Below are positions 11,257 through 46,065 of a stretch of 64,000 nucleotides of DNA, in pieces. The stretch covers positions 6,634,001-6,698,000 of the forward strand of contig CM059452.1 in the NCBI GenBank assembly GCA_030390025.1, written 5' to 3'. This stretch comes from Squalus acanthias. Taxonomy: Eukaryota. Numbering within the stretch: the first letter of the stretch is position 1; each line of letters opens with the position of its first letter. The notes under the pieces were generated by a model that saw only the letters and a list, made by a program, of their open reading frames with translations, was not told where the DNA came from and did not search any database. The translations under genes were made by a program, and so were the position numbers.

Positions 11257-11975
11257 CACAGTGATGGAAACCAGTTAAACCCTCGTACAGAAACTCCCTC
11301 CGCTTTGTAGATCAGAGGCTCCGCCTGCTGAACCCGGATATAACAGCGGGCACATGTGAAGAGTGACACAAAATAATTATTCAGCAAATCTGCCATTTCC
11401 TTATTTTCTATGACAGTATCACCCGAGCGTGTCTTTAAGCGGCCCGCATTACCCTGAGTCCCGCTTTCTCTTCTTACTTTGAAAACGTTTCCCTATAATC
11501 GCCATCAGAGCGAAGTTCGTTGTTGGGTTGAGTGTCGGGACGAGTTACAGACTAAGAACATTGTTCATTTTATTTAACTAAAGAATTAAAGAAACACATT
11601 TTTAAATGCAGGCATTAAGTTCAAAAGGAAGTCTGTGTTCCAAATGGTTAACTATTAAGTTATTATGAATGTGGTTATTGTTAACGTGAATACGTTGTAA
11701 ATATTTGTAATGAGCAGCTCACCCCAGAATCAGTAAAACTATCTGTTGCCTGCACCCTCCCATTCTGCTCAAACCTGTCAGTCACTCCCCATTTCATTCA
11801 TATAAAAGGTCGCGTTTGTCTAATTTACCGCATCGTTGTTTTCAAATCCTCAGGATCTACTGGCCGTCTCTACCTCCCTTTATATCATGATGTGGAGATG
11901 CCGGCGTTGGACTGGGGTGGACAAAAATGAGAAGTCGCACAACACCAGGTTATAGTCCAACAGATTTATTTAATT

Positions 11976-12013
11976 TTACAAGCTTTCGGAGCTATCGCTC
12001 CTTCGTCAGGTAA
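11976..12013 (-). ncRNA. Minimal hammerhead ribozyme (inverted copy)
   Basis: Reverse complement of 13137-13174. Confidence 0.75.
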
Positions 12014-13136
12014 GTTAGCAATGAGAGAATCTCCCAGAATTCACAATTTAAACCCAGACAAAATCTATTCACATTATTCGCTACAACAAAGAGCACAGCC
12101 AAGACAATGAGATGTGTCCCAGGGGGTCCAGCGTGTCAAACCACCTGCTGGCTGCATATCCTGTCAATTTGTGTTCTTGTGTTTTTTAAAAAAAAAAACC
12201 AAAAAAAAAAAAAAACCCCTGGAAGACCGGCCATGATGTCAAGTCACGTTCTGTATCGTGACATGAACCCGATATCGCGATTGAGGCCATCCTCATGAGT
12301 GCGGAACTTGGCTATCAGTTTCTGCTCTATGATTTTGCGCTGTCGTGTATCTCGAAGGCCGCCTTGGAGAACGCTTACCCGCAGATCCGAGGCTGAATGC
12401 CCCTGGCTGCTGAAGTGTTCCCCGACTGGGAGGCAACCCTCCTGCCTGGCGATTGTTGCGCGGTGTCCGTTCATACGTTGTCTCAGTGTCTGCATGGTCT
12501 CGCCGATGTACCATGCTCTGGAGCATCCTTTACTGCAACGTATCAGGTAGACAACGTTGGCCGAGTCACATGAGTATGTACCGTGTACCTGGTGGGTAGT
12601 GTCCTCACGTGTAATGATGGTATCTGTGTCCATGATTTGGCATGTCTTGCAGAGGTTGCCGTGGCAGGGTTGTGTGGTGTCTTGGTTGCTGTTCTCCTGA
12701 AAGATGGGTAATCTGCTGCGAACGATGGTACTTTTGAGGTTAGGCGGCTGCTTGAAGGCGAGTAGTGGAGGCGTGGGGATGGCCTTAGCAAGGTGTTCGT
12801 CGTCATCGATGACATGTTGAAGGCTGCGAAGAACATGGCGTAGTTTTTCCGCTCCGGGGAAGTACTGGACGACGTAGGGTACTCTGTTGGTTGTGTCCCG
12901 TGTTCGTCTTCTGAGGAGGTCTATGCGGTTTTTCGCTGTGGCCCGTCGGAACTGTCGATCGACGAGAACACAAGAACACAAATTGACAGGATATGCAGCC
13001 AGCAGGTGGTTTGACACGCTGGACCCCCTGGGACACATCTCATTGTCTTGGCTGTGCTCTTTGTTGTAGCGAATAATGTGAATAGATTTTGTCTGGGTTT
13101 AAATTGTGAATTCTGGGAGATTCTCTCATTGCTAAC

Positions 13137-13174
13137 TTACCTGACGAAGGAGCGATAGCTCCGAAAGCTTGTAA
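13137..13174 (+). ncRNA. Minimal type I hammerhead ribozyme in Penelope pLTR
   Basis: TTAC-CTGACGA-A-GGAGC-GATA-GCTCC-GAA-AGCT-T-GTAA: catalytic core, stem II hairpin, palindromic stem III and stem I TTAC/GTAA. Confidence 0.75.
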
Positions 13175-14083
13175 AATTAAATAAATCTGTTGGACTATAA
13201 CCTGGTGTTGTGCGACTTCTCATTTTTGTCCCTTTATATCGGTTGTGGTTAGTTCTAATGGTCAGTGAGCAGCTCTTTTAACGGGAGCCTCCGGCACTGC
13301 TGCCAGAACAATATTAATAAATTAATTTCACTGCCTCCACCTCACAGACTGAAACTGTTAAAGGGCCAACATTGGGTTTAATCCCCGTCCAGTTCTCTGT
13401 TGTGAGGAGAACACGTGAGCTGTGAGCTGATTGGATAAATTGGAGAACAAAGGACCCGTGAGCTGATTGGATATCTCCTGCTGACTCTGTCAGGAATGAA
13501 CCAATCGGCAGAGAGGCCGGATATTAGTCAACATCTTCCCAGCTCTTGACTAAAACAAATTCAGGTTCAACCCGTTCTGTTCAAATCCGCATCGACTCTC
13601 TGCAAATATGTTGGCTGTTACTTTTTATTTGTTCGTCACAGCTGCAGCTGTCTTAACTGGTAAGTTCGCAAATTACACGACATTGTGTTTCACATCTGCA
13701 TCATACATTATATTTAATCCATCAGTTCCGGGAACACAAGAATATCAATAGATTGACCCGAAGTGAAGAAAACCATCCGGATTCACCCTTATTCAACACT
13801 GAACACTGTTTACGGACAATCAACAAAATCCTCCAGTGAATGATAGCGGAAGAGTTGAGGTGAGATTACAGGTGAATGGCAGACAGACCCGCTTCGCCCC
13901 GCTGGGGTCAATGACGGACTTTGACAGACAGACGAGTCTTAAACCGTTTGAAGTTTCCCTTCACATCACAAGAGGTGAAGGTGAGGTAATGATCCCGTTG
14001 GAAGGTGCTGAAGGTTCATTGAAGGAAGTTTTATTCAGTCGATCTCAGCACCATCCCGTGAGCAGCCCCTGAGCTGTGGGGAA

Positions 14084-15075: not shown

Positions 15076-15382
15076 ACAGCGTCCTTGGATGGATCGCTCA
15101 TTAGCCAATGGAAGAGGTGACCGCTCAGGAGGGAGAGATCGCGACAATAACCTGCTCCTATACAGAGGTGACCAGAGTTTGCCTGTCCTGGTACCGGGAG
15201 GGTCGGTCCGTGGGCCCGGAGAATATCCTCATCCGCTGCACCGACCGGTTCAGTGACGATGCGAACTTTGCAAGACGGCGCTTCACCTCATCTTTGGCCA
15301 AAACTTACAGAGCCGTCAGTTTAAGGGTTTCACAGCTGACAGCTGCGGATTCCAGGAAATACTTCTGGGTCATAACACCGCA
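15076..15382 (+). pseudogene. TCR V pseudogene V9
   Basis: V-like frame ITCSY...SWYRE has an in-frame TAG in FR1 and YFW instead of YYC. Degenerate RSS CACGGTG-23-AGATAAACT. Confidence 0.8.
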
Positions 15383-18620: not shown

Positions 18621-19532
18621 GTGGACATTAGTGAACTAAATCGTTTTTTTACAACAATACGATAATTTCATGGTTACCATTACTGATACTAGCTTTTTAT
18701 TTCAGATTTATTTTAATTAACTGAATTTAAACTGATAGTTCAGGGAAGTGGCGTTGAGGTAGAAGATCAGCCATGATCTTATTGAATGGCGGAGCAAGCT
18801 CGAAGGGCCAAATGGCCTACTCCTACTGCTATTTCTTATGCTCTTATGTTCTGAGTCTTTTGTATTCAGTCGGTCCTCTGACTATCTGGCACGGAGCTAA
18901 GAACACACCATGTGTGTCCTTAGAGATTATTATTCGATTCATGTTTGTTCATCAGCTTCTTCTCTTGTCCTGAATTTGACCTTCTGGAACCTGCTTTTAC
19001 TGCAGATTCTTACTTTATATATGGGCAAGTCTCTATAATTTTGATAAAATGTTCAATAAAGTTATTAGAATTATACGGGTCTTCCGTACCCGAACTATCT
19101 CTGTCTACACTGTAGACTGATATTTTAAACCAATCATTATTTGTCCGTTTGCCGTGCGTTATATCCGAAGCAGCCGTGCACCAGTTACAGGCCACCCGCA
19201 GGTGTGTTTATTCTCAATGGGACTGGCGCTTCCTAAAGATACAGAAATACACATCAACCATTTTTGATCTCATGCAGTTAATACAATAATCAGACGGAAT
19301 CAGTATGCGATGTGAACAGTTTTATATGAGTTTTATGCGGATTCTGCTCGGGGTCTGCGCACGCAGGAATGTAGTCACGTGTCAGTGTCTGACCCGCTGT
19401 GATAAACAGCCCACAACAGGCAGCAGCTGTGACATAGAAACATAGAAACATAGAAGATAGGAGCAGGAGTAGGCCATTCGGCCCCTCGAGCCTGCTCCGC
19501 AATTCGATGAGATCATGGCTGATCATCCAAAC

Positions 19533-22382
19533 TCAGTACACTGTACCTGCCTTCTCCCCATATCCCTTGATACCTTTAGTTTTAAGAAATATATCTAAGT
19601 CATTTTTGAATATATTTAATGACTTGGCCTCAACTATCTTCTGTGGTAGAGAATTCCACAGGTTCACCACTCTCTGGGTGAAGAAATTCCTCCTCATTTC
19701 TGTCCTAAATGGCTTACCCCTAATCCTTCGATTATGACCCCTGGTTCTGGAATCTCCGACCATCGGGAACATTCTTCCTGCATTTAGTTTGTCCAGACCT
19801 GTCAGAATTGTATATGTTTCGATGAGATCCCCTCTCATTCTTCTATACTCCAGCGAGTATAAGTCCAATCGACCCAATCTCTCCTCATATGTCATTCCTG
19901 CCATCCCAGGTATCAGCCTCGTGAATCTTCGCCGAACTCCCTCCATGGCAAGAACATCCTTCCTCAGATAAGGCGACCAAAACTGCACACAATACTCAAG
20001 GTGTGGTCTCACCAAGGCCCTGTACAACTGCAGCAGGACATCCCTGTTCCTATACTCAAACCCTTTCGCTATGAAGGCCAACATACCATTTGCCTTCTTC
20101 ACCTGCATGCTTACCTTCAGCGACTGGTGCACAAGGACACCCAGGTCTCGTTGCACTTCCCCTTCTCCCAATCTATTGCCTTTCAGATAATAGTCTGCCT
20201 TTCTGTTTTTGACACCAAAGTGGATAACCTCGCATTTATCCACGTTATATTGCATCTGCCACGCTTCTGCCCACTCACCCAACCTGTCCAAATCATCCTG
20301 GAGTTTCTCGGTATCCTCCTCGCAGCACACACTCCCACACAGCTTTGTGTCATCTGCAAACTTGGAGATATTACATTTACTTCCCTTATCTAGATCATTA
20401 ATGTATATTGTGAATAGCTGGGGTCCAAGGACCGTTCCCTGCGGTACCCCACAAGTCACTGCTTGCCAGTCGGAAAAAGACCCATTAATTCCTACTCTTT
20501 GCTTTCTGTCCGCCAACCAGTTCTCTGTCCAAGTCAATACCTTGCCCCCAATCCCATGTGCCTTAACTTTACACGCTAATCTCTTATGCGGGACCTTATC
20601 GAAAGCCTTTTGAAAGTCCAAATACACCACATCTACTGGTTCTCCCTTATCTATTTTCCCAGTTACAGCCTCAAAAAGTTCCAGTAGATTAGTCAAGCAC
20701 GATTTACCTTTTGCAAATCCATGTTGACGTTTTCCGATCCTGCCACTGTTTTTCAAGTGCTCAGCTATTACATCCTTTATAATGGACTCTGGCATTTTCC
20801 CCACTACCGATGACAGGCTTACTGGTCTGTAATTCCCTGCTTTCTCTCTACCACCCGTTTTGAATAGTTGGGTAACATTAGCTACCCTCCAATCCATGGG
20901 TACAGTTCCAGATTCCATCGAATGTTGGAAGATGATCAGCAATGCATCTACTATTTCTAGGGCCACTTCCTTAAGTACCCTAGGATGTAGAATATCAGGC
21001 CCTGGGGATTTATCGGCCTTCAATCCCGTCAATTTCCCTAACACCATTTCCCTGCACATACTGATTTCTTTCAGTTCCTCCCTTTCATCAGACCGTATGT
21101 TCTCCAACATTTCTGGAAGGTTATTTGTGTCCTCCTTTGTGAAGACAGAACCAAAATATGCATTTAATTGGTCCGCCATTTCTTTGTTCCCCATTATAAC
21201 TTCCTCCGCTTCTGACTGCAAGGGACCTACACTTGATTTCACTAACCTTTTTCTCTTCACATATCTATAAAAACTCTTACAGTCAGTTTTTATGTTCCCA
21301 GCAAGCTTACTTTCATATTCTATTTTCCCCTTCTTAATTAATCCCTTTGTCCTCCTTTGTTGTATCCTAAACTGCTCCCAATCCTCAGGGTTACCGCTTT
21401 TTCTGGGCAATTTATATGCCCTCTCCTTGGATCTTATGCTATCCCTAATTTCCCTTGTTAGCCACGGTTGAGTCACCCTTTTTGTTTTATTCTTATGCCA
21501 CACTGGGATGAACAAATTCTGTAGTTCATCCATGCAGTCTTTGAATGTTTGCCATTGCCTTTCCACCGTCAACCCTTTGAGTGACATTCCCCAATCAATC
21601 CTACCCAATTCGCGCCTCATACCATCGTAGTTTCCTTTATTTAAATTCAGGACTCCATTCTCTGATTCAACTACTTCACTCTCCATCCTAATGAAGAATT
21701 CTATCATATTATGATCACTCTGACCCAAGGGGCCTCGTACAACAAGATTGCTAATTAATCCTTTCTCGTTACATAATACCCAGTCTAAGATGGCCTGATC
21801 TCTGGTTGGTTCCTCGACATATTGTTCCAAAAAATCATCCCGTAAACATTCTAGGAATTCCTCCACCACAGTATTTTTACTAATTTGGTTAGCCCAATTT
21901 ATATGTAAATTAAAGTCACCCATGATGACTGCTGTTCCCTTACTGCATGCTTCTCTAATTTCCCTTTTAATGCCATCCCCAACCTCCGTATTACTGTTTG
22001 GAGGTCTATATACCACTCCCACTAACGTTTTCTGCCCCATGTTATTTCTCAGTTCTACCCATACAGATTCCGCATCATCAGATCTAATATCCTTCCTTTC
22101 AATTGTGTTACTCCCCTCTTTAACCAGCAATGCTACCCCACCTCCCTTTCTTTTTTGCCTATCTTTCCTAAATATTGAATACCCCTGGATGTTGAGTTCC
22201 CAGCCTTGGCCACCCTGGAGCCATGTTTCTGTAATCCCAATCAAATCGTATTCATTTACCTCTATTTGCACAGCTAATTCATCCACCTTGTTCCGAATGC
22301 TCCTTGCATTAAGACACAAAGCCTTCAGGCTTGTTTTTTTAGCGCTCTCATACCTATATGAATTATTATTTACTGTGACCAT
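19533..22382 (-). CDS. CR1 ORF2 (APE endonuclease + reverse transcriptase), 949 aa open
   Basis: Motifs CLNARS, GITETWL, GDFN, SDH (endonuclease); YRPVSL, LDFQKAFD, GVPQG, FADD (RT). Confidence 0.95.
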   Translation of the reverse strand: MVTVNNNSYRYESAKKTSLKALCLNARSIRNKVDELAVQIEVNEYDLIGITETWLQGGQGWELNIQGYSIFRKDRQKRKGGGVALLVKEGSNTIERKDIRSDDAESVWVELRNNMGQKTLVGVVYRPPNSNTEVGDGIKREIREACSKGTAVIMGDFNLHINWANQISKNTVVEEFLECLRDDFLEQYVEEPTRDQAILDWVLCNEKGLISNLVVRGPLGQSDHNMIEFFIRMESEVVESENGVLNLNKGNYDGMRRELGRIDWGMSLKGLTVERQWQTFKDCMDELQNLFIPVWHKNKTKRVTQPWLTREIRDSIRSKERAYKLPRKSGNPEDWEQFRIQQRRTKGLIKKGKIEYESKLAGNIKTDCKSFYRYVKRKRLVKSSVGPLQSEAEEVIMGNKEMADQLNAYFGSVFTKEDTNNLPEMLENIRSDEREELKEISMCREMVLGKLTGLKADKSPGPDILHPRVLKEVALEIVDALLIIFQHSMESGTVPMDWRVANVTQLFKTGGREKAGNYRPVSLSSVVGKMPESIIKDVIAEHLKNSGRIGKRQHGFAKGKSCLTNLLELFEAVTGKIDKGEPVDVVYLDFQKAFDKVPHKRLACKVKAHGIGGKVLTWTENWLADRKQRVGINGSFSDWQAVTCGVPQGTVLGPQLFTIYINDLDKGSKCNISKFADDTKLCGSVCCEEDTEKLQDDLDRLGEWAEAWQMQYNVDKCEVIHFGVKNRKADYYLKGNRLGEGEVQRDLGVLVHQSLKVSMQVKKANGMLAFIAKGFEYRNRDVLLQLYRALVRPHLEYCVQFWSPYLRKDVLAMEGVRRRFTRLIPGMAGMTYEERLGRLDLYSLEYRRMRGDLIETYTILTGLDKLNAGRMFPMVGDSRTRGHNRRIRGKPFRTEMRRNFFTQRVVNLWNSLPQKIVEAKSLNIFKNDLDIFLKTKGIKGYGEKAGTVY

Positions 22383-22504
22383 GTTTGATTTAAACCGTTG
22401 AGTTCTTTGCCTTCTACTTTTGTTTTTCTCCTTCCTGTCTTTTGCTTTTATCCTTGTTTCCCTTTCCTCTGTCTCCCTGCTCAGGTTCCCAACCCCCTGC
22501 CACT

Positions 22505-23455
22505 TTAGTTTAAACCCTCCCCAACAGCACTAGCAAACACTCCCCCTAGGACATCGGTCCCGGCCCTGCCCAGGTGCAGACCGTCCCGTTTGTACTGGCC
22601 CCACCTCCCCCAGAACCGCTTCCAATGTCCAAGGAATTTGAATCCCTCCCCCTTGTACCATTCCTCTAGCCACGTATTCATTTGAAATATCCTCCTATTT
22701 CTACTCTGACTAGCACGTGGCACTGGTAACAATCCTCAGATTACTACCTTTCAGGTCCTATTTTTTAATTGACCTCCTAACTCCCTATATTCTGCTTTTA
22801 GGACCTCATCCCCTTTTTTACCTATATCGTTGATGCCTATGTGCACCATGACAACTGGCTGTTCGCCCTCCCCCTCCAGAATGTTCTGTAGCTGCTCCGA
22901 GACGTCCTTGACCCTTGCACCAGGGAGGCAACACACCATCCTGGAGTCTCGTTTACGGCCGCAGAAAAGCCTATCTATTCCCCTTACAATTGAATCCCCT
23001 ATCACTATAGCTCTTCCACACTTTTTCCTCCCAGCCTGTGCAGCAGAGCCACCCATGGTGCCAGGAAGTTGGCTGCTGCTGCCTTCCCCTGATAAGTCAT
23101 CCCCCCCAACAGCATCCAAAGTGGTATATCTGTTTGAGAGGGGGATGGCCACAGGGGACCCCTGCACTACCTGCCTGCACCTCTTACTCTGCCTGGTGGT
23201 CACCCATTCACTTCCTGCCTGTACACCCTTTACCTGCGGTGTGACCAACTCTCTAAACGTGCTATCCACGACGTCCTCAGCGTCGCGAATGCTCCAATAT
23301 GCATCCATCCGCAGCGCCAGCGCCGCAATGCGGTCCATCAGTAGCTGCAGCTGGATACACTTCCCACACACATGGTCGTCAGGGACACAGGAAGCGTCCC
23401 TGATTTCCCACATATAGCAGGAGGAGCATATCACAGGGCGGAGCTCTCCTGCCAT
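22505..23455 (-). pseudogene. CR1 ORF1 (zinc-finger + SGNH/GDSL esterase), broken by stops
   Basis: CSSC...CGKC, VIGDSIVR, LPGA, VHIGINDI, DGLHL motifs. Split into two ORFs by stop codons near 22,750. Confidence 0.85.
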
Positions 23456-24056
23456 GACTTACCCTTTAATTAATTAATTAAAATTAAATTAAATGAATCC
23501 CACCAATTTCACTTCAATTCAATGGTATACTCAAGGGCCCTTGTTTAACAGCAGTCCCCGCTACACCACAGAGACTCTAGAAACTATAAACCACAGAATT
23601 TAAGTATGGAAAAAGAAGAGAGAAATACTCACCAACCAATCACATACCTGCTTTCTGATGACGTCACACTTCGATTAGTTTTTACTTCTGTCTCCCGCTC
23701 TGAGATTGGTAAACTTATCTGCTCCCAGGGCTCGCTTTTATCCTCTGCCGCCGCCGCTCCTCCTAGGTCCGCACCGCCGCTGCTGTGGGCCTACCTGCTC
23801 CTCGGGCTCGCCTTTATACTCTGCCGCCGCCGATCCTCCTAGGTCCGCACCGCCGCTGCTGTGGGCCTACCTGCTCCTCGGGCTCGCCTTTATACTCTGC
23901 CGCCGCCGCCGCTCCTCCTAGATCCGCAGCGCCGCTGCTGTGGGCCTACCTGCTCTTCGGGCTCGCCTTTATACTCTGCCGCCGCCGCTCCTCCTAGGTC
24001 CGCACCGCCGCTGCGGCAGTTATTGGACGAGGCTTTAGCTCGTTCCCATCACTGTG

Positions 24057-24360: not shown

Positions 24361-25444
24361 CTGGAACACACGGTTACAGAAAGCGGAAATCATCGGTTAA
24401 AGGTTCAAACTGAACCAACTGACGGTGAAAATGCGCAGTGATTTTCACATAAAATTAAATGGAATTTACTGCACAGAAAAAGGTCATTCGTCCCAACCAG
24501 TCTATGCCGTGTTTATGCTCCACACAAGCCTCCACCCAGCCTTCTTCATCTCTCCCTATCAACATATCCTTCTATTCCTTTCTCCCTCGTGTACTTATCT
24601 AACTTCCCCTTCAATGAATCTATGCTGTTCTCCTCAACTATTGCTTCTGGCAGCGGATTCTACATTCTAACCTTGGTAAAGACGTTTGTCCAGAATTCAC
24701 CATTGGATCTTTTGTGATTATGTAGATGAAGATGTTCAGCGTGTTTCTCTCACTGTCAGTAATCAGGCTGAGGTTGTTGACGGGGCTCGGGTTTGATTAA
24801 CCTTCTGCTGGGGACAAACAAGGGGAAGATTTCCTCTGGTCTTCCAAACACAGCGGGAAATCTCGTCCGATCGCTAGTTTAGTAGAATCGTCATTCATTA
24901 TTTTAGAACGCGTTCAATATGTCACTAGAGGTGGCGACCAGAGGAAATCTCCCGCACAGAGCGGACACCTCGGCGTAGACACGAATATCACAGGAGAATG
25001 AGATTATTGCTCTCGGTGAGCCGTCACACACCGTCAGAAATTAAACCAACACGCAGAAAAGGGAAGGTTTAGAGCCCTTTGAATATAATCCCAAATCTAA
25101 GCAAAGCTGCACACTTCTGTGCTGGTGTAAGGGGTGTGGAAATGAAATAAACACAGCGGCAGTGAGGAGGGAAACTTGAAATTGAACAGACATTACACGG
25201 TACATTGGGCTATTAAACCTGCGCGTATTTTCTCCTGTTCATCCCTCATTATAGAGTGAATGAAATCTAAAATCATACTCCTCTATTCAGAGCTGTTGGG
25301 AGCTGCCCTGTGGGAATATTCTGACATGACAGTAACTGTCCTAATCAGACCATCACAGGCGGGTATTCCGGCCACACACTGTTCTATTTACACGCGGTGT
25401 GCTGCAGTTTTTGTACAGGACGGGCACAGAGCTGTGCAGCTGTG

Positions 25445-25888
25445 TGTCTCAGAGCGCAGTAATACACGGCGCCGTCTGACAGCTCCGCCCCAGAAACTCT
25501 CAGCCGAACCGCGCTCTCCTCTGCGCTTAGCTCTGCTGTAAAACGGTCCTTGGCGAAGTCGGCTGGGAAGGTGTTGTATTTGATGATAAACAACAGTATT
25601 ACTGGGGCTCGACCGAGAATCTGCCGGTACCAGAAAAGCTCAGGGTTTGTATCTGTTGTTGTAAAACTACAATTCAACCTCACCGTTTCTCCTTCCCGCA
25701 CCATCCTGGTCGAATAGTCTTGGTGCACGGAATCGCCGCCAACGTTATTGGCTGGAAGAGAAATTGAACATTTATAAATATCTGCGCCATTAACCGGACC
25801 TATTGGTGTCTTTTCTGCTCGGATTCCACATGTACTTACACAGCACAGAGAGCGCCAACACTACACTGAAATAAACAGGGAAACACAT
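25445..25888 (-). CDS. TCR V alpha/delta segment V12 (intact)
   Basis: Leader 25888-25840 MCFPVYFSVVLALSVL. V exon 25751-25445 reads GDSVHQDY...LNC...FWYRQ...YYCALR. RSS is CACAGCT, 23-bp spacer, ACAAAAACT (25414-25406). Confidence 0.9.
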
Positions 25889-27072
25889 CGCTGTCAGGGG
25901 GTCACAATATGAGCATCGACCCTTTCTCTGCTGTAGCAAAAACTGCCACCAGTACCGGACCAGGCTGAGCTATTGAACCCTGTGACAGGCATAGAAAGGG
26001 AAGTGACCCTGCAACTATGTCACATCCGTTTGGGATAATTTCACACCATCAGGGAGCGGGGGGAAGAATTGCTCTCGTCACTGTGGGGGCAGCAACATCG
26101 GAAATGTTTCAATTGAGATTCCTCTGGTCGGCATTTCTAGGGAAATCATAAACGATTCCTTTTTTAACTACTGAATTGCAAAAAGAACGTATTTAACATC
26201 AAATAGAGAGAGACGAGAGGAAATCTTCGTGGAACGATTTAAGATTCGCTGCACTCAGTGAACAGAGACACTATCCCCCTCCCTTGATTCATTGCATGTA
26301 GCAGTGGCACTTTTCATAGGCAGTGTTGAGCTGCCCTTAGCTTTACCCAGGGACAATAAATTATTTTTGATATAGCAAATACCGACCGAGAGACTATGGA
26401 AATTCGCTCCACGGCGCCACCAATTGGATGGAGCCAGAAAGTACATGCTGACTGCTCTCCTTGATCACTGTTACCGCCTAGTGTCTCTTTAACTCTCCTT
26501 CTGAGCTCATTTAATAGACACATAGAGTCTTACAGCACGGAAGGTGACCTTTGCCCCGTTGTGCCTGTGCTGTTAGAACCACTGCCCTGCTCTTTCTCCA
26601 TAGCCCTGAAAATGTTTCCTTTTCAAGTATATATCAAATTCCATTTTACAAATTTCTTTTTATATGGAAGGCAGCATCCTACACAAGAGTTGTACCAATG
26701 TATAGAGAGAAAATGTAGACCTTTGGTCCTCGGAAATTGCTCGGAGCGCCTCTGTGTGGGTGTGTCTCCCTCAATCGCTACATAAAGATGAGAGATAATT
26801 ATATAAAAAATGAATAAAAGGAAGACAGAAGGAGGATGTAAAGTTTGGTTTGTAATATTGGAAAATAATGACAGGTTCAAGCTGTTCCCGGTAACCTCGC
26901 CAGAAGCAGACTGTTTAAAATCGATTCAATATACCCATTTGAGTTTGTTGTAAAGTGTTTGTGCTACAGAGCAGCAGCAGGTTACTGGTAAAGAGACGGA
27001 CACAAGTTCCTCGCAGGTCTCTGTCTCTCTCTCACTGTGGAAGCTGAATTGTCGCTTCTGTTTATCGGTGTG

Positions 27073-27375
27073 TCTCTGTTTATATTATACTAGGCCCTGT
27101 TTCAGTTATCACTGACCTGGAGATTTTTGCTGTTTGTATTAAACTAGGCCCTCTCTCTCTGTTAATATTACACTAGGCCCTGTCTCAATTATACTGAACT
27201 AGACTCTATCTCTTTTTATATTATACTAGGCCCTGTTTCAGTTATTGCTGCCCTAGACATTGTCACTGTTTATATTAAACCAGGTCGTGTCTCTGTTTAT
27301 ATTACACTCGGCCCTGTCTCAGTTATACTGCACTAGGCCCTATCTCTGTTTATATTACACTAGGCCCTGACTCAA
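27073..27375. repeat. ~30-bp satellite (TATATTACACTAGGCCCTGTCTC family)
   Basis: Direct tandem units. The reverse complement of this family occurs at 31,690-32,090 and 32,605-32,910. Confidence 0.8.
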
Positions 27376-27439
27376 ATGGCCCAACAAATTACCAGTGTAA
27401 TTAAAACATTTTGAAAAACTGAAAGGTGATGTGCGGTCT

Positions 27440-27900
27440 CAGCTGTACAGCATAACATCAGTTATTAAAAGAGGCAATAATCTAAATGACCTGTTGGTCG
27501 GCAGCAGAGTACAGGCAATGCAAAACTGGCGTGTCAAGCATAGTGGGACATGTAAATACATAAAAATCCAAAAAATGATACAAAACAGGAGCACGGGAAA
27601 GACAGCCTTAATAAACCAAAATATTGCATGTGAACAGCCCAATGTAATCTATGGCAATCCGATGCAAACATCTTATATAAAGAGGAACAGGAAACAATCA
27701 AAGAACCAGGCTTACAGGGCACCTCAGTGCCACTAGAACAGCACATGAAAAGAAAGCTATCACCAGACATTTGATGGAACGTGAAGTTCAGTCCCTGGAA
27801 ATTATGGGGCTTGAAACCAATATGAGCTGGACAATCCCACAAAGGAAGAAGAGAGAGACGCTGGAATGCAAAATTAGAAACCCAGTTACCAAATGGCCTC
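27440..27900 (+). mobile_element. Degenerate Penelope-like GIY-YIG fragment
   Basis: GTCKYI...INQNIACEQPNVIY resembles the CKTC...CDSANVVY region of the 12-13 kb element. Frameshifted. Confidence 0.5.
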
Positions 27901-27957
27901 AATCAAATATAAAGCACGAAAACGCTGATCCAGAGTCAAACCTAAAGTATCCCCCAA

Positions 27958-28380
27958 AAACTAACCCAACTACCATGGAAATCCTACTCTAACCCTCACC
28001 ATAACCCTATCTCATAAACCGTTACCCTAACCCGAAACCGAACCCGAACTCCAACACCAACACTAACCCGAACCCTAACCCCTACCCTAACACTAACCCT
28101 ATCTCACAAACCCTAACCCTAACCCAACGCCAACACCAACACTATTCCCAAACACGATCCCTAACCCGAACCCTAACCCGAACCCTAACCCCTACCCTAA
28201 CACTAACCCTATCTCACAAACCCTAACACTAACCCAACACCAACACCAACACTATTCCCAAACACGATCCCTAACCCGAACCCTAACCCGAACCCTAACC
28301 CCTACCTGAACCGTAATTACACTAACCCTAATGACTCCAACACCAAAGACGCTAACGCTAACCGAAAACCCGCACCCTAA
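27958..28380. repeat. Degenerate interstitial telomere-like repeats (CCCTAA and variants)
   Basis: Runs of CCCTAA/CCCGAA/CACTAA/CACCAA with a ~120-bp higher-order duplication. Confidence 0.85.
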
Positions 28381-28594
28381 AATACCTCCAACCATGATCT
28401 TTATCTCGATCTTAAGCAAGACTACTCTTTCAACTAGATATTACCACGTTGAAGAGTGTAACATATGCCTTGAAACCCAAATATAACCCGAGCTTGGGCT
28501 AGATAATGGCAAGTAGAAATGGACAAACTGCAATAAAAGGCGTGAGACTCTTTTCTCATTATTAAATCTAATGAGAGGGCAAAAAAGGCGAGGG

Positions 28595-29310
28595 AATGCA
28601 TAATAAATGGTAAGATACCTAGAAGTGTAGAGGAACAGAGGGACCTTGGAGTGCATGTCCACAGATCCCTGAAGGTAGCTGGACAGGTAGATAAGGTGGT
28701 TAAGAAGGCAAACAGATACTTTCCTTTAGTAGCCGAGGCATGGAATATATGACCAGTGTGGTTTTGCTAGAACTGTATTAAACACTATTTACGTCACAGC
28801 TAGAGTACTGCGTACAGTTCTTGTCACCACATTTCAGGAAAGATGTGATTGCACTAGAGAGGGTACAGAGGAGATTTACGAGGATGCTGCCAGGACTGGA
28901 GAATTTTAGATCTGAGGAAAGATTGGATAGGCTGGGGTTGTTTTCTTTGGAACAGATGAGGTTGTGGGCAGATTTAATTGAGGTGTATAAAATTATGAGA
29001 GGCCGCGATAGAATGGATAGGAAGGACCTATTTCCCTTAGCACAGACGTCAATAACCAGAGGGCATAGATTTAAAGTAATTGGTAGAAGGATTAGAGGGC
29101 AGTTGAGGAGAATTATTTTCACCCAGAGGGTGGTAGGGGTTTTGAACTCACTGCCTGAAAGGGTGGTAGAGGCAGAAACCCTCAGGACATTTAAAAAGTA
29201 CTTGGATATGCATTTGAAGTGCCGTAACCTACAGGGCTACGGACCAAGAGCTGGAAAGGGGGATTAGGCTGGAGAGCTCTTTTTCGGCCGGCACAGACAC
29301 GATGGGCGCA
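28595..29310 (+). mobile_element. CR1 LINE 3' fragment
   Basis: LERVQRRFTRMLPGL...FTQRVVGVLNSLP. Confidence 0.9.
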
Positions 29311-29551
29311 ATAGTACTTGGATATGCACTGCTGATGATAAACATCTACTGCAGGCGCCAGAGTTTTCTTTTAAACATGATTCATAATTCCACAGACAAC
29401 AACTTGCACTGACCCAGTGACGCTCACACAGAGGAGTTTCTGAGAACAAACCACAAGAGGGCCAAGAGATCAGGAGGAATTAAGGGAGGAAGGAACACAA
29501 TTACTGCTATATATTCTGAGGAGGTTTTTATGGGAAGTTATGAAGTTATAT

Positions 29552-31440
29552 AAGAACATAAGAATTAGGAGCAGGAGTGGGCCACACGGCCGCTAGAGCC
29601 TTCTCCGCCATTCAATAAGATCATGGCTGATGTTCGACCTCAATGCCACTTTCCCGCCCGATCCCCGTAGCCCTTGAATCCGCTAGAGTCCAAAAATCTA
29701 TCTCCCTCAACCTTGAATATATTAAGGACTCAGCATTTACAGCTCTTTGGGTAGAGAATTCCAATGATTCACAACCCTCTGAGTGAAGAAATTCCTCCTC
29801 ATCTCAGTCTTAAATGGCCTACCCCTTATCCTGAGACTATGCCCCCTAGTTCTAGACACTCCAGCCAGGGGAAACAACCTCTCAGCATCTACCCTGTCAA
29901 TCCCCTTCAGAATCTTGTATGTTTCAATGAGATCACCTCTCATTCTTCTAAACTCCGGAGAGTATCGGCACATTCTACACAATCTCTCATCATAGGACAG
30001 CCCTCTCATCCCAGGGATCAATCTGGTTAACATTCGTTGCACAGCCTGCAAGGCAAGTATGTCCTTCCTCAGATAAGGAGACCAAAACTGTGCACAGTAC
30101 TCCAGGTGTGTTCTCACAAAAACCGTGTAAAATTGTAGTAAGACTTCCTTACTCTTGTACTCCAACCCCCTTGCAATAACGGCCAACAATTCATTTGCCT
30201 TCCTAATTGCTTGCTGTACCTGCATGCTAACTTTTTGTGTTTCCTGTAGGAGGACACCCAGATCTCTCTGAACACCAACATTTAGTAGTTGCTCACAATT
30301 TAAAAATATTCAGCTTTTCTATTCTTCCTACCAAAGTGAATAACCTCACATTTCCCCACATTATACTCCATCTGCCATCTCATTGCCCACTCACTTATTC
30401 TGTCTATATCCCTTTGCAGGCAATTTGTGTCCTCCTCACAGCTTACTTTCCGACCTAGCTTTGTATCATCAGAAAACTTGATACATTGCACTCGGTCCCT
30501 TCAGCTAAGTCATTAAAATGGATTCTAATCAGCTGAGGCCCCAGCACTGATCCTTGCCGTACCCATTTGTTACAGCCTGCCAATCCGAAAATGACATGTT
30601 TATCACTACTCTCTGTTTTCTGTCCGTTAGACAATCCTCTATCCATGCTAATACATTACCCTCAACCTTATGAGCCTTTACGTTGCGAAGCAAACGTTTA
30701 TGTGGCAGCTTATCGAATGCCTTTTGGAAATCCAAATATACTACATCCACTGGTTCCCCTTTATCTACCCTGTTAGTTGCTTCCTCAAAAACTCTAATAC
30801 ATTTGTTAAACATGATTTCGCTTTCATACAACCATGTTGACTCTGCCTAATCATATTAAGATAGTATAAGTGCCCTGTTACCACTTCCTTTATAATGGAT
30901 TCCAACAGTTTCCCGACGATTGGTGTCAGGCGAACTGGCCTGAAGCTCCCTGTTTTCTTTCTCCCTCCTTTCCTGAATATCAGGGTCACATTTGCTACTT
31001 TGCAATCTACTGGGAACCTTTTAGAATCCAGGAAATTTGGAAAATCACAACCAATCCATCCACCTGTTTTAGGACCCTCGGATGTAGGCCATCAGGTCCA
31101 GGGTATTTTTCGGTTTTTAGTCCTATTAGTTTCTCAAGTACCTTTTATCTACTGATATTAATTACATTAGGTACCTCACTCTTATTAGTCCCTTGATCCC
31201 CCATTATTTTGGTATGCTTTTTGTGTCTTCTACTGTGAAGACAGATACAAACTATTTGTTTGAAGTCTCTGCCATTTCCTTATCCCCATTATAATATCAC
31301 CTGTCTCAGCCTCTAAGGGACCAACGCTTACTTTTGCTTCTCTCTTCTTTTTTGCATACTTTGCTCTTACAATCTGTTTTTATATTTGTTGCTAGTTTAC
31401 TCTCAGATTCTATTTTCTCCCTTTTTATCAAATTTTTGGA
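29552..31440 (-). mobile_element. Degraded CR1 LINE (RT region and tail)
   Basis: Fragmented ORFs VVYLDFQKAFDK, KCEVIHFG, LEYCAQFWSP, RRNFFTQRVV, and the ATAAGAAC tail. Confidence 0.9.
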
Positions 31441-32087
31441 AGAAGCTGGCAATGAAGAAGGGAAACGCAACTGCAAAACCCACACATCTCCTCTAATGGT
31501 GGAGGAGGAGGAACCGATGCCTTTGAGTGTCTTGTGGGCAACTGCGCATGTGTGTCACTCTTACGCCGGGTTGAAACTTGCTGCAATGAAGAGCGCACGG
31601 AAACTGCTCACATTTCAAAAGCATTTGAAATGTAGAACTGCAAGTCCGAGATCTACTTTCCACTATTACATATGTTTATATTACACCAGACAAGATCTAG
31701 TGCAGTAATAAATGAGACAGGGTCTAGTGTAATATAAACAGATGCATGGTCCACTATAGTAATAAGTAAGATAGGGACATGTGTCGTATAAACAGGGACA
31801 TGGTCTAGTGCAGTAATAACTGAGACAGGGTCTAGTGTAATATAAACAGAGGCACGGTCTAGTGCAGTAATATCTGAGACAGGGTCGAGTATATTATGAA
31901 CAGAGACATTGTCCAGTGTAATCTAAACAGAGAACAGGGTCTAGTGTAATATAAACTGAGACATGGTCTAGTGCGGTAATAACTGAGACAGAGTGCTGTG
32001 GAATATAAAGAGAGACAGGGTCTAGTGTAATATAAACAGAGACAGGGTCTATGTATGTAATAAATGAGAAAGAGCCTAGTCTAGTAT

Positions 32088-32604
32088 TCTGCACCCATGA
32101 GGACGGCCTCAACCGGGATCTTGGGTTCATGTCACGCTACATGTAACCCCACCTGACGTAGAGTCATCCAGACTCGAGTCGTCATTGGCTTGTTCTCTCT
32201 ACACAGATGCGGCCGGACCTGCTGTGATTTCCAGCAAAAAAAGTTTTTTAGTTTTCCATACAGACCCCAGCATCTGCCACATTTGACCCCTTGTGACCCC
32301 ACCTCATTGTCTTTGATGTAATGTTTTCCTGACTGACCTGTTTGGACACCATCCACACCTATGATTGCCGTGATTATCTCTCTGCCGAGGTGTGATAAAT
32401 GGCAGTTAGAAAGATTAACTGTAATCATCTGGCAGTGTTCTCTGACTATATATGCTGTGCCTATATGCATCTCTTCACTTCACCTGACGAAGGAGCAGCG
32501 CTCCGAAAGCTTGTGATTTCAAATAAAGCTGTTGGACTATAACCTGGTGTTGTGCGACTTCTCACATTTGTCCACCCCAATCCAACACCGGCATCTCCAC
32601 ATCA
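32088..32604 (+). mobile_element. Penelope-like 3' fragment
   Basis: Encodes ...THEDGLNRDLGFMSRY* and ends GGCATCTCCACATCAT, the same 3' end as the 11.9-kb element. Confidence 0.85.
32480..32516 (+). ncRNA. Minimal hammerhead ribozyme
   Basis: TCAC-CTGACGA-A-GGAGC-AGC-GCTCC-GAA-AGCT-T-GTGA. Stem I TCAC/GTGA covaries relative to the 13-kb copy. Confidence 0.75.
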
Positions 32605-32929
32605 TAGTGTTATTAGAACAGAGGCAGGGTCTAGTGCAGTAATAAATGAGACAAGGTCTTGTGTAATATCAACACATTCCGGGTCTAGTGTAATATAATC
32701 AGCGACGTGTTCGACTGCAGTATAACTGAGACAGGGCCTAATGCAATAACAACAGAGATATCGTGTAGAGTAATATAAAGGGCGAAATTGTTTTTTGCCG
32801 TAATAACTGAGACAGGGTCGAGTGTAATAAGCTGAGACTCCGTCTAATATAAAAGAAACAGAGGGAATGGTTTAGTGCAGTGATAACTGAGAGAGGGCCG
32901 AGTGTATTCGAACAGAACAGATGAAAATG

Positions 32930-33460
32930 CTGTGTGCCAGATAGGTCCAAAGCTCTCAGAATATTTTCCAGGGTTTGTGCTCTCTGTCAGATATTCTCCT
33001 GTTTCAGGGAATAATTTCCAGGGTTTGTATACGCTGGTGTGTCAGATCGGCCCCAGGCTCGGGGAATCATTCCCAGGGTTTGTGTTCTCTGGTGTATCAG
33101 ATAGGCCCCAGGCTCGGGGAATCATTCCCAGGGTTTGTGCTCTCTGGTGTGTCAGATAGGCCCCAGGCTCTGGGAATCATTCCCAGGGTTTGTGCATTCT
33201 GGTGTGTCAGATAGATCCCAGGATCTGGAATCATTCCCAGGGTTTGTAATTCCTGGTGTGTCAGATAGGTCCCAGGCTCTGGGAACCATTCCCAGGGTAT
33301 GTGTTTTCCGTGTGTCAGATAGGTCCCAGGCTCTGGGAACCATTCCCAGGGTATGTGTTTTCCGTGTGTCAGATAGGTCCCAGGCTCTGAGGATCTTTCC
33401 ATGGGTTTTTCACTCTGGTGTGTCAGATAGGTCCCAGTCTCTGAGAATCATTCCCAATTT
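32930..33460. repeat. ~49-bp tandem minisatellite
   Basis: Unit GTGTCAGATAGGCCCCAGGCTCGGGGAATCATTCCCAGGGTTTGTG..., about 10 copies. Confidence 0.9.
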
Positions 33461-35517: not shown

Positions 35518-35563
35518 ATGGGACTTGCCCCGTGCCTCTGTTTGTTACTGGCTTGCTTCGCCT
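35518..35563 (+). CDS. IgH leader exon (IgW-like)
   Basis: MGLAPCLCLLLACFA with a phase-1 GTGAGT donor. TATA-like TTTAAATA at ~35,419. Confidence 0.9.
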
Positions 35564-35683
35564 GTGAGTATTCCTCACTGCTTTAGTGACACAATAGAAG
35601 ACAGCTTCAGATATTGTGTTTTACTTCTATTCATTGATGTGAATGTTCTTCAATGTAATTGCATTTGTTTCATTTACTTACAG

Positions 35684-36011
35684 ATGTCCGGTCCGATATC
35701 GTGCTGACCCAGTCGGCTTCTGTGTCGAAGAAGCCCGGAGAATCTCACAAACTGTCCTGTTCAGTGAGCGGGTTCAGTCTGGACAGCGACTACATGCACT
35801 GGGTTAAACAAATTCCCGGGAAGGGGTTGGAGTGGCTGCTTGCTTCCAGAAAGCCGTCGGAAACCAAATATTGCGCTCCTGGAGTCGAAGGTCGGATCAT
35901 CCCTTCAAAAGACTCTTCCACAACCTATATCGAGATCATTAATCTAAGAATCGAAGACACCGCCATGTATTACTGTGCAAGAGACCGTGCTACAGGGGGA
36001 AACTGGGGTAG
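35684..36011 (+). CDS. Pre-joined VH-D-D segment (IgW-type VH)
   Basis: VRS-DIVLTQSASVSKKPGESHKLSCSVSGFSL..MHWVKQIPGKGLEWL...EDTAMYYCAR-DRATGGNWG. There is no RSS after CAR. D-like cores CTACAG and ACTGGG are embedded in the junction. Confidence 0.92.
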
Positions 36012-36039
36012 CACAGCAGTTACTGTCAATACAAAAACC
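36012..36039 (+). other. 12-RSS (3' of the last D)
   Basis: CACAGCA-GTTACTGTCAAT (12 bp)-ACAAAAACC. Confidence 0.95.
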
Positions 36040-36363
36040 CTCAGCACTAATTGAGTGAGTCTGGGTCAGTGCTCGCTTTCACAATCCAACTGTGGATGCA
36101 GTGAAGTCCTATTTGTGTCCAGCACTGTCTACTAGCACAGTTTAACATGGATAAACTGTGATAATTAATCATTGATCAGTTGGTGATTTCATTAACTGTT
36201 CATGGGTTACTCTGTGAAATATAAAACATCAGGGTATTTTATAAAGAGTGAAAAGTTTCCATTGACAGATTTATAATTTTACGAAGATGCATCGTGACTT
36301 TACTGTCTCTGGGATGTGAATATTTAAACTAAGGTTGGATTTCTGTCTGTTTTACGCAGAGCC

Positions 36364-36450
36364 AGTTATTGTGTGACCCAGCCCGGGGAATGTAACACTG
36401 TGACTACCTCGACTACTGGGGACAAGGCACCATGGTGACGGTAACTGCAG
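36364..36450 (+). CDS. JH segment with 5' 23-RSS
   Basis: AGTTATTGT (36364-36372), 23-bp spacer, CACTGTG (36396-36402), then YLDYWGQGTMVTVTA (36403-36450) and a GTAAGA donor. Confidence 0.95.
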
Positions 36451-36489: not shown

Positions 36490-37772
36490 GACTTCATTTT
36501 GTATTTCTGTTTATTTCAATAATTCATTCATTCATTCACTGAAACTTGGGTTTGGTGGATTCTGTATTGAGATTTTTTGCAATGTTTCATTTGATTCTGC
36601 TGCAAAGGGATAATAGATTTAAACAGTTACTTCAGAAAAAATTGTTTTTGAGGGATTGAGCCCCTGATTGATGTCATTTGGTGTTTATCTGCTGATGAGA
36701 TTGTGCACCTGGGTTACTTTAAATACCTAACGGTCATTGAACTGTTTGGAGTTTCTACAATGTTTAATCTCGGTGGCATCAAATGGTTGCAGGTTTTCTG
36801 ACCAAATGTAAACATTGTGTTTAAATGTGTTTGAAATAAGATTGTAAGAAGAAAACAGAAAGCTTTAGTGCTCAAAAAAAATCTTAAGATATTTAATGTA
36901 TTTTTGTTTCTGATATTTACATTGTCAGCTATTAATCTAATGTTCACCAATGGTCATATTCAATACATGAAATGTTATTGTAATTAATAACTAAATAATT
37001 AACAATTTTGAGCCTGAATCAGATTTAAATGAATATAAATTAAATCATTATAATGTAGTAATATCACCCAATATTACAACAATATGCTATATTAATATTA
37101 ATTTATTAAACCTGATCCGTCTAATCACAATTCTGCTGTCATTATTTTATATTTTTGTTTATTTCAATAATTAATTCGCTCAGTGATAGATGGGTTCCCT
37201 GGATTCTGTATTGAGATCTTTTTGCAATGTTACATTTGATTCTGCTGAAAGGGTTTATAGAATGAAGCTGCTTCTCTACAAAACGTTCTGTTGCGGGATT
37301 CAGCCCCTCAGTGATGTGATTTGCTGTTTATCTGCTGAGGAGAGTGTGTGCCTGGGTTACTTTGAATAACTAAAGTTTGTGAAACTGTTTGGAGTTTCTG
37401 CAATGTTTAATCTCGGTGACATCGAACTACTGCAGGTTTTCTGATCTGTTTAAACTGTTTGAAAGATGATTGTAGGCAGGCAACATGTAGGTTTTATGAA
37501 TCAAAAATCGTTTAAAATAATTTAGTGCATCCTTTTATTTAAGTGAGAATTACAGATTCAACTATTAATCTATGGTTTACGGTGCTCACATTTAGTAGGT
37601 GAAATGTTACTGTAATTACGAATTATATAATTAACAATTTGCAGGTTGAAGGAGAGTTAAATTAATATAACTCAAACGATTAGAATGCGGTAATATCGCC
37701 CAATATTACTAAATATGTTGCAGTATTAATATTAATGTATTAAACATTATTCGGCTTCCACAATTCTGCTGT
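36490..37772 (+). repeat. ~650-bp AT-rich tandem duplication in the JH-C intron
   Basis: 36,500-37,137 aligns with 37,150-37,772, for example TTTATTTCAATAATT, GGATTCTGTATTGAGAT and CACAATTCTGCTGT. Confidence 0.8.
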
Positions 37773-44611: not shown

Positions 44612-44911
44612 CGACACAGTCTCCTCCCACCCTCTACGCCCTGCTCTCCTCCTGTGAACAACCCAACACCGGCGGCCCCGTCACGTACGGCTGTTTGGCG
44701 ATGGACTACTTGCCGGAAATCACCAGCCTTTCCTGGAGTAAAGATAAAGAGCCGATCACCATTGGATTGAAGACCTACCCGTCAGTGTTCAACAAGAAGG
44801 GAACCTACACCCTGAGCAGCCAGTTAACCATCACCGAGTCAGAGGTGGGGAGCAGCACAATCTACTGCCAGGTTCGACGAAGTGAGACGGACTGGAGCGT
44901 CCAAATGCCAG
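44612..44911 (+). CDS. IGHM: IgM constant exon Cmu1
   Basis: [33 protein letters not shown]...TYPSV...[24 protein letters not shown] boundaries, phase 1, 300 nt. Recognisably shark mu chain. Confidence 0.95.
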
Positions 44912-44934
44912 GTTAGTGTTGTGGGATACAGGGG

Positions 44935-46065
44935 GAAACTGTGAAAAGCAGAGAAGTTATGTTCAACTTCTATACAACTTTGTTTAGACCAGACTTAGAG
45001 CACTGTGTACAGGTCTGGTCTCCATATCACACTAAGAGCACTGTGCACAGGTCTGGTCTCCATATCACACTTAGAGTGCTTTGTACAGGTCTGGTCTCCA
45101 TATCACACTTAGAGTACTGTGTACAGGTCTGATCTCCATATCACACTGAGAGTACTGTGTATAGGTCTGGTCTCCATATCACACTTAGAGTGCTTTGTAC
45201 AGGTCTGGTCTCCATATCACACTTAGAGTACTGTGTATAGGTCTGGTCTCCATATCACACTTAGAGTGCTGTGTACAGGTCTGGTCTCCATATCACACTT
45301 AGAGTACTGTGTACAGGTCTGGTCTCCATATCACACTTAGAGTGCTGTGTACTGGTCTGGTCTCCATATCACACTTAGAGTGCTGTGTACAGGTTTGGTC
45401 TCCATATCACACTTAGCGTACTGTGTACAGGATGGTCTCCATATCACACTTAGAGTGCTGTGTACAGCTCTGGTCTCCATATCACACTTAGAGTACTGTG
45501 TACAGGTCTGGTCTTCATAATCACACTTACTGTACTGTCCATAGTTCTGGTTTCCATTTTATAAGAATGATACAGAATGATGGAGAAGTTCAAAAGAAGA
45601 TTTACAAGATTTACCAGAACTGAAAAATTGTAACTGTCAGGAATGATTGAACGGGTTTGGGATCTTTAATCTAGAAAAGAGAAGGCTGAGGGGGGACCGA
45701 ATAGAGGTCTTTAAAATTATGAAGGGGTTTGAAACGTTAGATGTAGAGACAATATTTCTGCTTGAGGAGGAGCCCGATACTAGGGGCCATAAATATAAGA
45801 TAATCGCTAATAAATCCAATAGGGAATTCAGGAGAAACTTCTTTACCCAGAGAGTGGGTAGAATGTGGAACTCGCTACCACATGGAGTAGTTGAGGCGAA
45901 TAGAATAGATGCGTTTCAGGGGAATCTAGATAAGTACAGGAGGGAGAAAGGAATAGAAGGTTATGTTGATGGGGAGATGAAGTAGGGAGAGAGGAGGCTC
46001 ATGTGGAGCATAAACACCGACCTGATGGGCCGATTGACCTGTTTCTGTGTTGTAGATTCTATGTA
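44935..46065 (+). mobile_element. CR1 3' fragment containing an amplified 39-bp minisatellite (~44,990-45,540)
   Basis: LFRPDLEHCVQVWSP, then a tandem array of the same codons, then RRNFFTQRVGRMWNSLP. Confidence 0.88.

Follow-up and report, generated by a model that had tools for sequence, protein, structure and literature searches.

The junction at position 27,072 of the Squalus acanthias window (the whole 64,000-nucleotide stretch of DNA that was analyzed) is likely a real local breakpoint in an already described kind of mixed Ig/TCR locus, and is probably best explained as an ordinary break in repeat-rich DNA where the upstream side of an IgM cluster begins within that locus, rather than as a fused chromosome end. 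The original prediction had held that a ~35-kb subtelomere-like segment carrying the IgH cluster was inserted into, or fused with, the TCR array; the breakpoint at 27,072, the IgH genes between TCR V genes, and the change of compartment all stood, whereas the subtelomeric origin, the clean insertion, and the end fusion were not supported.

The window contains no N, and a search for tRNA genes found none. An RSS scan together with a six-frame motif scan revealed that TCR-type V genes form an array in which both orientations occur; their heptamers lie at 122, 4,297, 7,286, 8,560, 11,257, 14,516, 17,796, 24,056, 25,444, and 63,305, and V relics at 285–519, 1,674–1,778, and 15,105–15,377. Nine V-linked RSSs have spacers of 23–24 nt, and the tenth, at 24,056, has a decayed nonamer. 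Four of the window V genes formed a clade apart from the VH rows in a 13-row tree (support 100/99), and the array is likely of the shark TCR alpha/delta type, the alpha/delta label coming from motif likeness and not from a named hit; the best named relatives of the window VH and of one window Penelope ORF are shark proteins. The last TCR-type V exon left of the junction, located by RSS scan and tblastn, lies on the minus strand at 25,444–25,750 and has a 23-spacer RSS. The right-hand TCR V, a pseudogene, lies with its flank and a repeat common to the V at 17.5 kb in 62,221–63,648 (minus strand); this V at 63.3 kb is, together with its flank, paralogous to the V at 17.5 kb in inverted orientation (83–89% identity), and TCR V DNA has therefore been duplicated here. 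Between 25,749 and 63,305, tblastn with nine window V exons found no TCR-type V, in agreement with the earlier reading that none occurs until 63.3 kb, and the only V in that interval is the VH at 35.7 kb.

This VH belongs to a V-J-C-TM cluster that occupies 35.5–59.0 kb on the plus strand, between the TCR-type V genes at 25.4 and 63.3 kb. The cluster opens at 35,518–36,039 with a leader (35,518), an IgW-type VH exon, ~26 nt of D-like sequence, and a 12-RSS (36,012–36,039); the VH is joined in frame to two D-like pieces, which is the VDD-J form, and the remaining 12-RSS lies ~350 bp from the 23-spacer RSS of the JH (36,364–36,450). At 44,612–49,831 there follow four constant exons, all open, the last of them succeeded by a secretory tail, which is the architecture of IgM; tblastn with these exons found only those four, the TM exons being separate, and CH1 matches Ig heavy chains in the PDB. 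The membrane exons TM1 (54,780) and TM2 (58,964) are contained in 54,780–58,972, and TM1 is frameshifted in this sequence at a short T run, where residual indel errors may exist.

Such neighborhoods are known from other elasmobranchs, in which IgM, IgW, and IgNAR miniclusters are linked to and interleaved with TCR alpha/delta V genes in an antigen-receptor complex (Flajnik et al., 2025, PMC12227049). Table S1 of that paper has nine IgM constant-region rows between TCR V rows on white shark chr27 (8.9–15.8 Mb), four IgM constant-region rows in the V region of a stingray, and, for the catshark, IgM rows that neighbor those of TCR V or TAILV; in its epaulette shark sheet, IgM is absent among the TCR V rows. 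The window resembles this complex in that one IgH minicluster is flanked by TCR-type V genes, with mixed orientation and many relics; the TCR constant genes and PSMB5 lie outside the 64 kb. Elasmobranch TCR V arrays thus contain IgM clusters repeatedly, and no special event is needed to explain this one. The published account presents gene models only, whereas the window gives a base-level junction; the main text of PMC12227049 has no hits to “telomer”, and a base-level description of a junction was not found in it.

The breakpoint itself is marked by a 58-bp island (27,015–27,072, minus strand) that is homologous to the 3′ flank of V5, the fifth V-like locus when two relics are counted. The reference flank (7,152–7,286, minus strand) was annotated with motifs that we take to be the RSS and CTCF consensus: the V5 RSS has its heptamer at 7,286–7,280, a 24-nt spacer, and its nonamer at 7,255–7,247, and a CTCF-like motif at 7,222–7,209 lies between the nonamer end at 7,247 and the matched stretch of 54 nt at 7,205–7,152. 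The proposed match of 27,015–27,072 to 7,152–7,205 was borne out, with 48 of 58 columns identical (83%) and a score of 64, whereas 200 dinucleotide shuffles, searched on both strands, had a median score of 26 and never exceeded 36, and the distance from the V5 nonamer, put earlier at ~40 bp, is 41 nt. The next-best real match to the island sequence in the window scores 32, and only two copies are present in 64 kb. Similarity does stop abruptly at 27,072, as had been noticed, the next 100 and 600 nt being similar to V5 only at shuffle level; an equally sharp stop on the left had gone unreported, where the score was attained by 85 and 99 of 100 shuffles for the adjoining 150 nt and by 5 and 46 of 100 for 600 nt. 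An extension of the homology beyond the island, on either side, was rejected as chance level under two permissive scoring schemes, and because both flanks are at shuffle level the V5 match is an island, bounded on both sides.

Derivation of the island from the adjacent 27-bp satellite was also rejected, 81–248 of 300 shuffles attaining the score. The identity of 83% is within the range of other paralogous V-array stretches in the window (80–88%), the island sequence is absent from the other nine V flanks compared, and its position and orientation fit the spacing of the neighboring minus-strand V genes. Since the island is unrelated to the satellite, has only two copies, and shows an identity that fits the V array, its likeliest source would be a V5-like gene, presumably lost, of which it is a relic. 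RAG cutting at the junction was considered and discarded: the island contains a perfect heptamer (27,033–27,039) with no RSS-spaced nonamer, and the break is 33 nt away.

The missing half of this putative V5-like gene, comprising the CTCF-like motif, RSS, and V, was not found in 27,073–64,000. Over that interval a CTCF-plus-RSS query scores 17–26 (null maximum 30), and the two best matches to the V5 exon right of the junction, with scores of 37 and 33 against a null maximum of 35, fall at the 3′ end of VH and within an 800-bp segment that includes the right-hand V. The V at 63.3 kb carries a flank of its own, as the paralog of the V at 17.5 kb, and not the missing half. No target duplication was seen in the window either. 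With the other half of the V flank not reappearing up to 64,000, the two halves of a clean insertion are not shown in the window, and a clean 35-kb insertion is not supported. A clean insertion or segmental duplication longer than the window, with the V at 63.3 kb as well as the IgM cluster inside it and the other V5-like half beyond 64,000, is rather unlikely; the inverted paralogy of the V genes at 63.3 and 17.5 kb would suit it, as would the repeated TCR V and IgM neighborhoods of the white shark (PMC12227049, table S1), but the window has no direct evidence of such a block and no target duplication, and the left end of the island is truncated too.

The same truncation bears on a different reading, in which the island comes from some regulatory element or small dispersed repeat that happens to be next to V5, and no V was lost at 27,072. 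Homology closed on both sides, in a sequence not seen in the other nine V flanks, is what such a fragment would show; the count of only two copies in 64 kb, the lack of relationship to the adjacent satellite, and a position and orientation suited to the spacing of the neighboring minus-strand V genes argue against it and leave it distinctly unlikely.

Right of the island, the 27-bp satellite forms a left arm at 27,071–27,373 (plus strand; 11.2 copies, 11 monomers, with A/B alternation), whose start coincides with a monomer boundary and shares 2 nt with the end of the island. Because the satellite recurs inverted on the right, in an inner arm at 31,675–32,087 (minus strand; 15 monomers, with an 18-nt fold-back stub at 31,675–31,692) and an outer arm at 32,605–32,916 (minus strand; 12 decayed monomers), 27,071–32,916 is a 5.8-kb repeat pile bounded by opposed arms, with the same satellite in opposite orientations on both sides of Penelope, telomere-like, and LINE-like sequences. 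The first monomer of the left arm continues the inner right arm in register and in A/B phase; the best-hit identity is higher with the inner arm (0.83) than with the outer (0.77), and more private k-mers are shared with the outer. A 4.6-kb inversion of 27,071–31,692 may have taken place, although fold-back at the monomer’s own short inverted motif explains the stub equally well. The collection of prokaryotic genome DNA that was scanned had no match to the monomer, as expected. Within the pile are two pieces of dispersed repeats, presumably CR1-type LINEs, neither of which had a Pfam hit: a 3′ piece at 28,595–29,265 (plus strand), with related copies on both sides of the junction, and a piece at 29,550–31,427 (minus strand), 91% identical to 5,403–5,820 and 69% identical to 19,442–21,336 in the TCR part. 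A 55-bp satellite (32,932–33,456, plus strand) lies just beyond the pile, and related units recur inverted at 59,941–60,043.

The predicted succession of satellite, Penelope remnant, and degenerate (CCCTAA)n is correct. The Penelope-like remnant (27,404–27,912, plus strand) is 5′-truncated and frameshifted, retains the linker and the GIY-YIG endonuclease end, abuts the satellite at its truncated 5′ end, and terminates in a stop codon at 27,910–27,912. Pfam did not detect it, nor did a 90%-clustered search or a profile of the sister Penelope family; phmmer against 1.84 billion representatives returned one hit, P0152 (E 8e-8), which carries a GIY-YIG domain (Pfam E 1.8e-9), is 27% identical to the RT-bearing P0121, and maps back by tblastn to 27,404–27,903 (E 5.6e-25). 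The C-terminal GIY-YIG is thus present in the 27.4-kb copy, and the RT is gone. A second Penelope family is represented at 32,087–32,605 (plus strand) by a 3′ end inserted in the satellite, with a minimal hammerhead core at 32,484, and also at 11,887–13,231, among TCR V genes; it was found in gene models of four shark genera. The three hammerhead cores in the window (12,009, 13,141, and 32,484) all belong to this second family, and Rfam gave no match at gathering scores window-wide, with four chance-level matches within 26.5–35.5 kb. As no intact hammerhead core was found near 28.4 kb, after the telomere-like tract, the place of that tract inside a Penelope terminal repeat is unproven.

The 27.4-kb copy shares with endonuclease-bearing Penelope-like elements of the Neptune-type linker its linker and GIY-YIG C-terminus, its 5′ truncation, and its insertion in an AT-rich tandem repeat, and the second family has their minimal hammerhead core and inverted end; the 27.4-kb copy differs in having neither RT nor intact hammerhead, and in the telomere-like tract after its stop. 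Neptune-type elements are reported to favor simple repeats (PMC8557442) and AT-rich targets are reported for Penelope elements (PMC3846280), and a targeted literature search returned no vertebrate endonuclease-bearing family with a telomere-like tract. Penelope transport of host genes has been reported in a rotifer (PMC3846280); transport of the Ig cluster in this way was rejected, the DNA right of the IgM gene having no matching terminal repeat or hammerhead core. The Penelope and LINE-like elements of the pile are dispersed, and are no marker of a subtelomere.

The telomere-like tract (27,959–28,380, plus strand) is a degenerate series of C-rich hexamers in one orientation that starts 47–75 nt past the Penelope stop, on the same strand. 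When the CCCTAA dimer was sought with ≤2 mismatches, 32 of the 35 window matches fell within 27,987–28,380 (5.0 expected window-wide). There are 15 CCCTAA in 425 bp and the longest perfect run is two units, so that a span of ~70 hexamer lengths holds only 15 canonical units; hexamer periodicity is clear, and a 110-bp unit inside the tract is duplicated at 97%. The sequence CCCTAACCC occurs 10 times in the window, always within the tract, and GGGTTAGGG does not occur in the window at all; the tract has no head-to-head partner and there is no second tract. It may be part of the Penelope element or an old short interstitial telomeric repeat. Mobile elements and satellites often flank interstitial telomeric sequences, among which short, subtelomeric, and fusion types are distinguished (PMC6410037), and the tract is similarly an internal, hexamer-periodic stretch between mobile elements and satellite, although it is not head-to-head, has 15 canonical units only, and bears the 110-bp higher-order duplication. 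Fusion scars are described as head-to-head blocks (PMC6410037), and an array left by a fusion would be expected at the join; the tract shows neither feature, being separated from 27,072 by ~900 bp of satellite and Penelope.

The change of compartment near 27 kb is sharp. Tandem-repeat cover is 3.3% in 1–27,070 vs ~18% in 27,071–59,430, the stretch between the junction and VH having 18.3% and the Ig gene 17.9%; all four copies of one V-array repeat and seven of nine CTCF-like motifs lie left of the junction. From these three distributions, the compartment boundary is real. The introns of the IgM gene account for much of this excess and contain most minisatellites of the block, and tandem repeats are generally more abundant on the small chromosomes of sharks and at their chromosome ends (bioRxiv 2022.10.17.512540); the tandem-repeat contrast neither proves nor excludes a terminal origin.

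These features together bear on the proposal that a subtelomeric segment with the IgH cluster was fused with or inserted into the TCR array, the tract being the old end, perhaps Penelope-capped. The C-rich strand of the tract is the plus strand, as it would be at a left chromosome end that had the Ig block on its proximal side; tandem repeats abound in the block, and degenerate TTAGGG-like blocks do occur in subtelomeres (PMC6410037). The order of Penelope and then CCCTAA also recalls the telomere-priming clades Athena and Coprina, in which elements attached to telomeres show the sense strand and then C-rich repeats (PMC8557442); membership of the tract in the element is a candidate feature here, and those clades lack the endonuclease of which the 27.4-kb copy retains a GIY-YIG remnant. 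The anatomy runs against such an origin: the tract is in one orientation, ~900 bp from the junction, and nested between inverted satellite arms, with one and the same satellite on its distal and its proximal side; neither a head-to-head array nor a second tract is present, and perfect runs do not exceed two units. IgM among TCR V genes is, moreover, recurrent in sharks and a ray, and FISH in three carpet sharks showed no interstitial telomeric site (PMC7648076), though FISH is blind to 400 bp. The subtelomeric origin is accordingly very unlikely.

An assembly join at 27,072 is highly improbable, since the junction’s position at a satellite edge and the TM1 frameshift in a short T run, which hints at possible residual indel errors, are outweighed by a window without N, a join in monomer register, and a satellite arm that, at only 300 bp and with monomers ~85% alike at best, should be within the reach of long reads.

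The probable explanation is thus a local breakpoint of a deletion or duplication type, associated with repeats and situated where the IgM cluster has its upstream edge. A V5 paralog would once have lain right of 27,072, some 1.2 kb upstream of the 25.4-kb V, and a non-homologous join, with few-base microhomology at a satellite monomer boundary, would have exchanged this V5-like gene for DNA derived from upstream of an Ig cluster, perhaps as part of the duplication and inversion that shuffle TCR V genes and IgM clusters. The AT-rich satellite may then have attracted Penelope insertions, and the tract may have come with, or arisen in, the 3′ end of the first Penelope, or may derive from an old short interstitial telomeric repeat; it would since have decayed and been duplicated in minisatellite-like fashion. 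Some points weigh against this account: an imported segment would also produce the sharp compartment change, the Penelope-then-C-rich geometry is that of telomere-priming elements, the island has a length of no more than 58 bp and ends abruptly at either side, and no IgM is listed among the TCR V rows of the epaulette shark. Nothing indicates a function for the junction itself.

A lead apart from the junction is the VH of the cluster. It matches the horn shark IgW V W26 at 64 of 95 positions and the horn shark IgM V HV01 at 50 of 95, and it groups with W26 at 94/92, just under the strong-support mark, in the 13-row tree, in a class assignment that compares only three shark VH references. Its closest relative found is catshark scyTo_0014239 (79 of 96), which is unjoined and, as read from its translation, appears to end in an RSS. 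The JH differs from the W26 J and, by its motif, is one that we take to be IgM-like. IgW clusters have six to eight constant exons (PMC5192425), whereas the window cluster, though its V is of IgW type, has four, and four C domains are typical of shark IgM (PMC4279169). Partially germline-joined shark IgM clusters (VD-J, VD-DJ, and VDD-J; PMC5192425, PMC4279169, PMC2435157) share with the window cluster the in-frame V-D join, the 12-RSS that is left, and the four constant exons, but the window V is nearer to IgW W26 than to IgM HV01. Since VDD-J is also a common somatic intermediate (PMC2435157), we infer the germline state of the window VDD-J rather than observe it; an inter-locus VDD-J was one among 58 thymic clones (PMC2435157), and IgW V with IgM C has been described as a somatic switch product (PMC4279169). 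No report of a germline IgW-V/IgM-C chimera was found in a literature search whose coverage lacked key papers.

One possible, though doubtful, origin of this combination is RAG capture, in which a germline joining event linked D segments of an IgM cluster to an IgW/TAILV-like V that already belonged to the TCR array; alternatively, the V may belong to an old IgW-like VH family of IgM clusters. If RAG capture were true, the window would contain a heritable IgW-V/IgM-C antibody gene inside a TCR V array, the capture joint would be the V-D join at ~35,990 and not the telomere-like tract, and removal of the V’s 23-RSS would have made this V unusable for Ig-TCR delta chimeras. The IgW-type V on an IgM cluster is a likelier subject of specialist follow-up than the junction.

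The route by which IgH miniclusters reached their places among TCR V genes matters for understanding how Ig-TCR chimeric receptors and the tetrapod IgH locus arose. A telomere-based origin, if true, would provide a dispersal mechanism for shark Ig clusters, but the anatomy is against it; the junction at 27,072 offers one base-level look at an Ig/TCR boundary, and it points to ordinary repeat-associated rearrangement, not to capture of a chromosome end.

The 58-bp island at the junction (27,015–27,072), which is homologous to the flank of the V5 gene at 7,152–7,205, abuts an array of 27-bp satellite (left arm, 27,071–27,373) that recurs in inverted orientation at 31,675–32,087. A perfect RSS heptamer was retained in both copies of the island (27,033–27,039 and 7,168–7,174), and no nonamer was found at RSS spacing from either heptamer. 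The inverted satellite arm terminates in a fold-back stub (31,675–31,692), and this end shares its monomer register with the start of the left arm (27,071–27,075); the shared register is compatible with a 4.6-kb inversion.

On the far side of the IgM cluster, the right-hand TCR V (62,221–63,706, minus strand) is frameshifted. Its exon was 88% similar to that of the V at 11.0 kb, but in the RSS, the flank, and the repeat next to it the gene matched the V at 17.5 kb, a pattern suggestive of either gene conversion or duplication with recombination. Elsewhere in the TCR array, a GC-rich minisatellite with a 76-bp period (23,719–24,014) immediately follows the decayed nonamer of the V whose heptamer lies at 24,056. 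CTCF-like motifs (2,411; 6,769; 7,222; 8,000; 9,429; 9,966; and 16,144) formed a cluster restricted to the TCR V part, with two other matches falling inside a LINE ORF at 56–57 kb. Mobile elements in the TCR part included a young Penelope copy (11,887–13,231), which shares 90% identity with a 54-member cluster of shark proteins and contains two hammerhead cores and an inverted duplication of 265 bp without mismatches, as well as a stop-free frame of 998 codons (19,536–22,529, minus strand), which we take to be a LINE-type ORF2, and an ORF remnant upstream of it (22,754–23,458).

Immediately 3′ of the IgM gene lies a composite repeat (59,769–60,043, minus strand) built of 55-bp and 67-bp satellite units and a piece of dispersed repeat, mirroring repeats at 33, 35, 40, and 47 kb. 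Between the 3′ end of the gene and the right-hand V, a GC-rich stretch (61,290–61,350, plus strand) resembles a YY1-type promoter motif.

The IgM cluster itself, on the plus strand throughout, opens with an IgW-type V joined in frame to D-like sequence, a 12-RSS still being present (35,518–36,450, up to and including the JH); the same cluster carries a four-exon IgM constant region (44,612–49,831). An AT-rich tandem duplication of 640 bp (76%; 36,496–37,772) occupies the start of the 8.2-kb intron between JH and the first constant exon. The exons for the secreted form of IgM retain intact open reading frames. In TM1, the first membrane exon (54,780–54,906), the frame changes within a short T run, by mutation or sequencing error, and the membrane form of IgM is disrupted in the present sequence.
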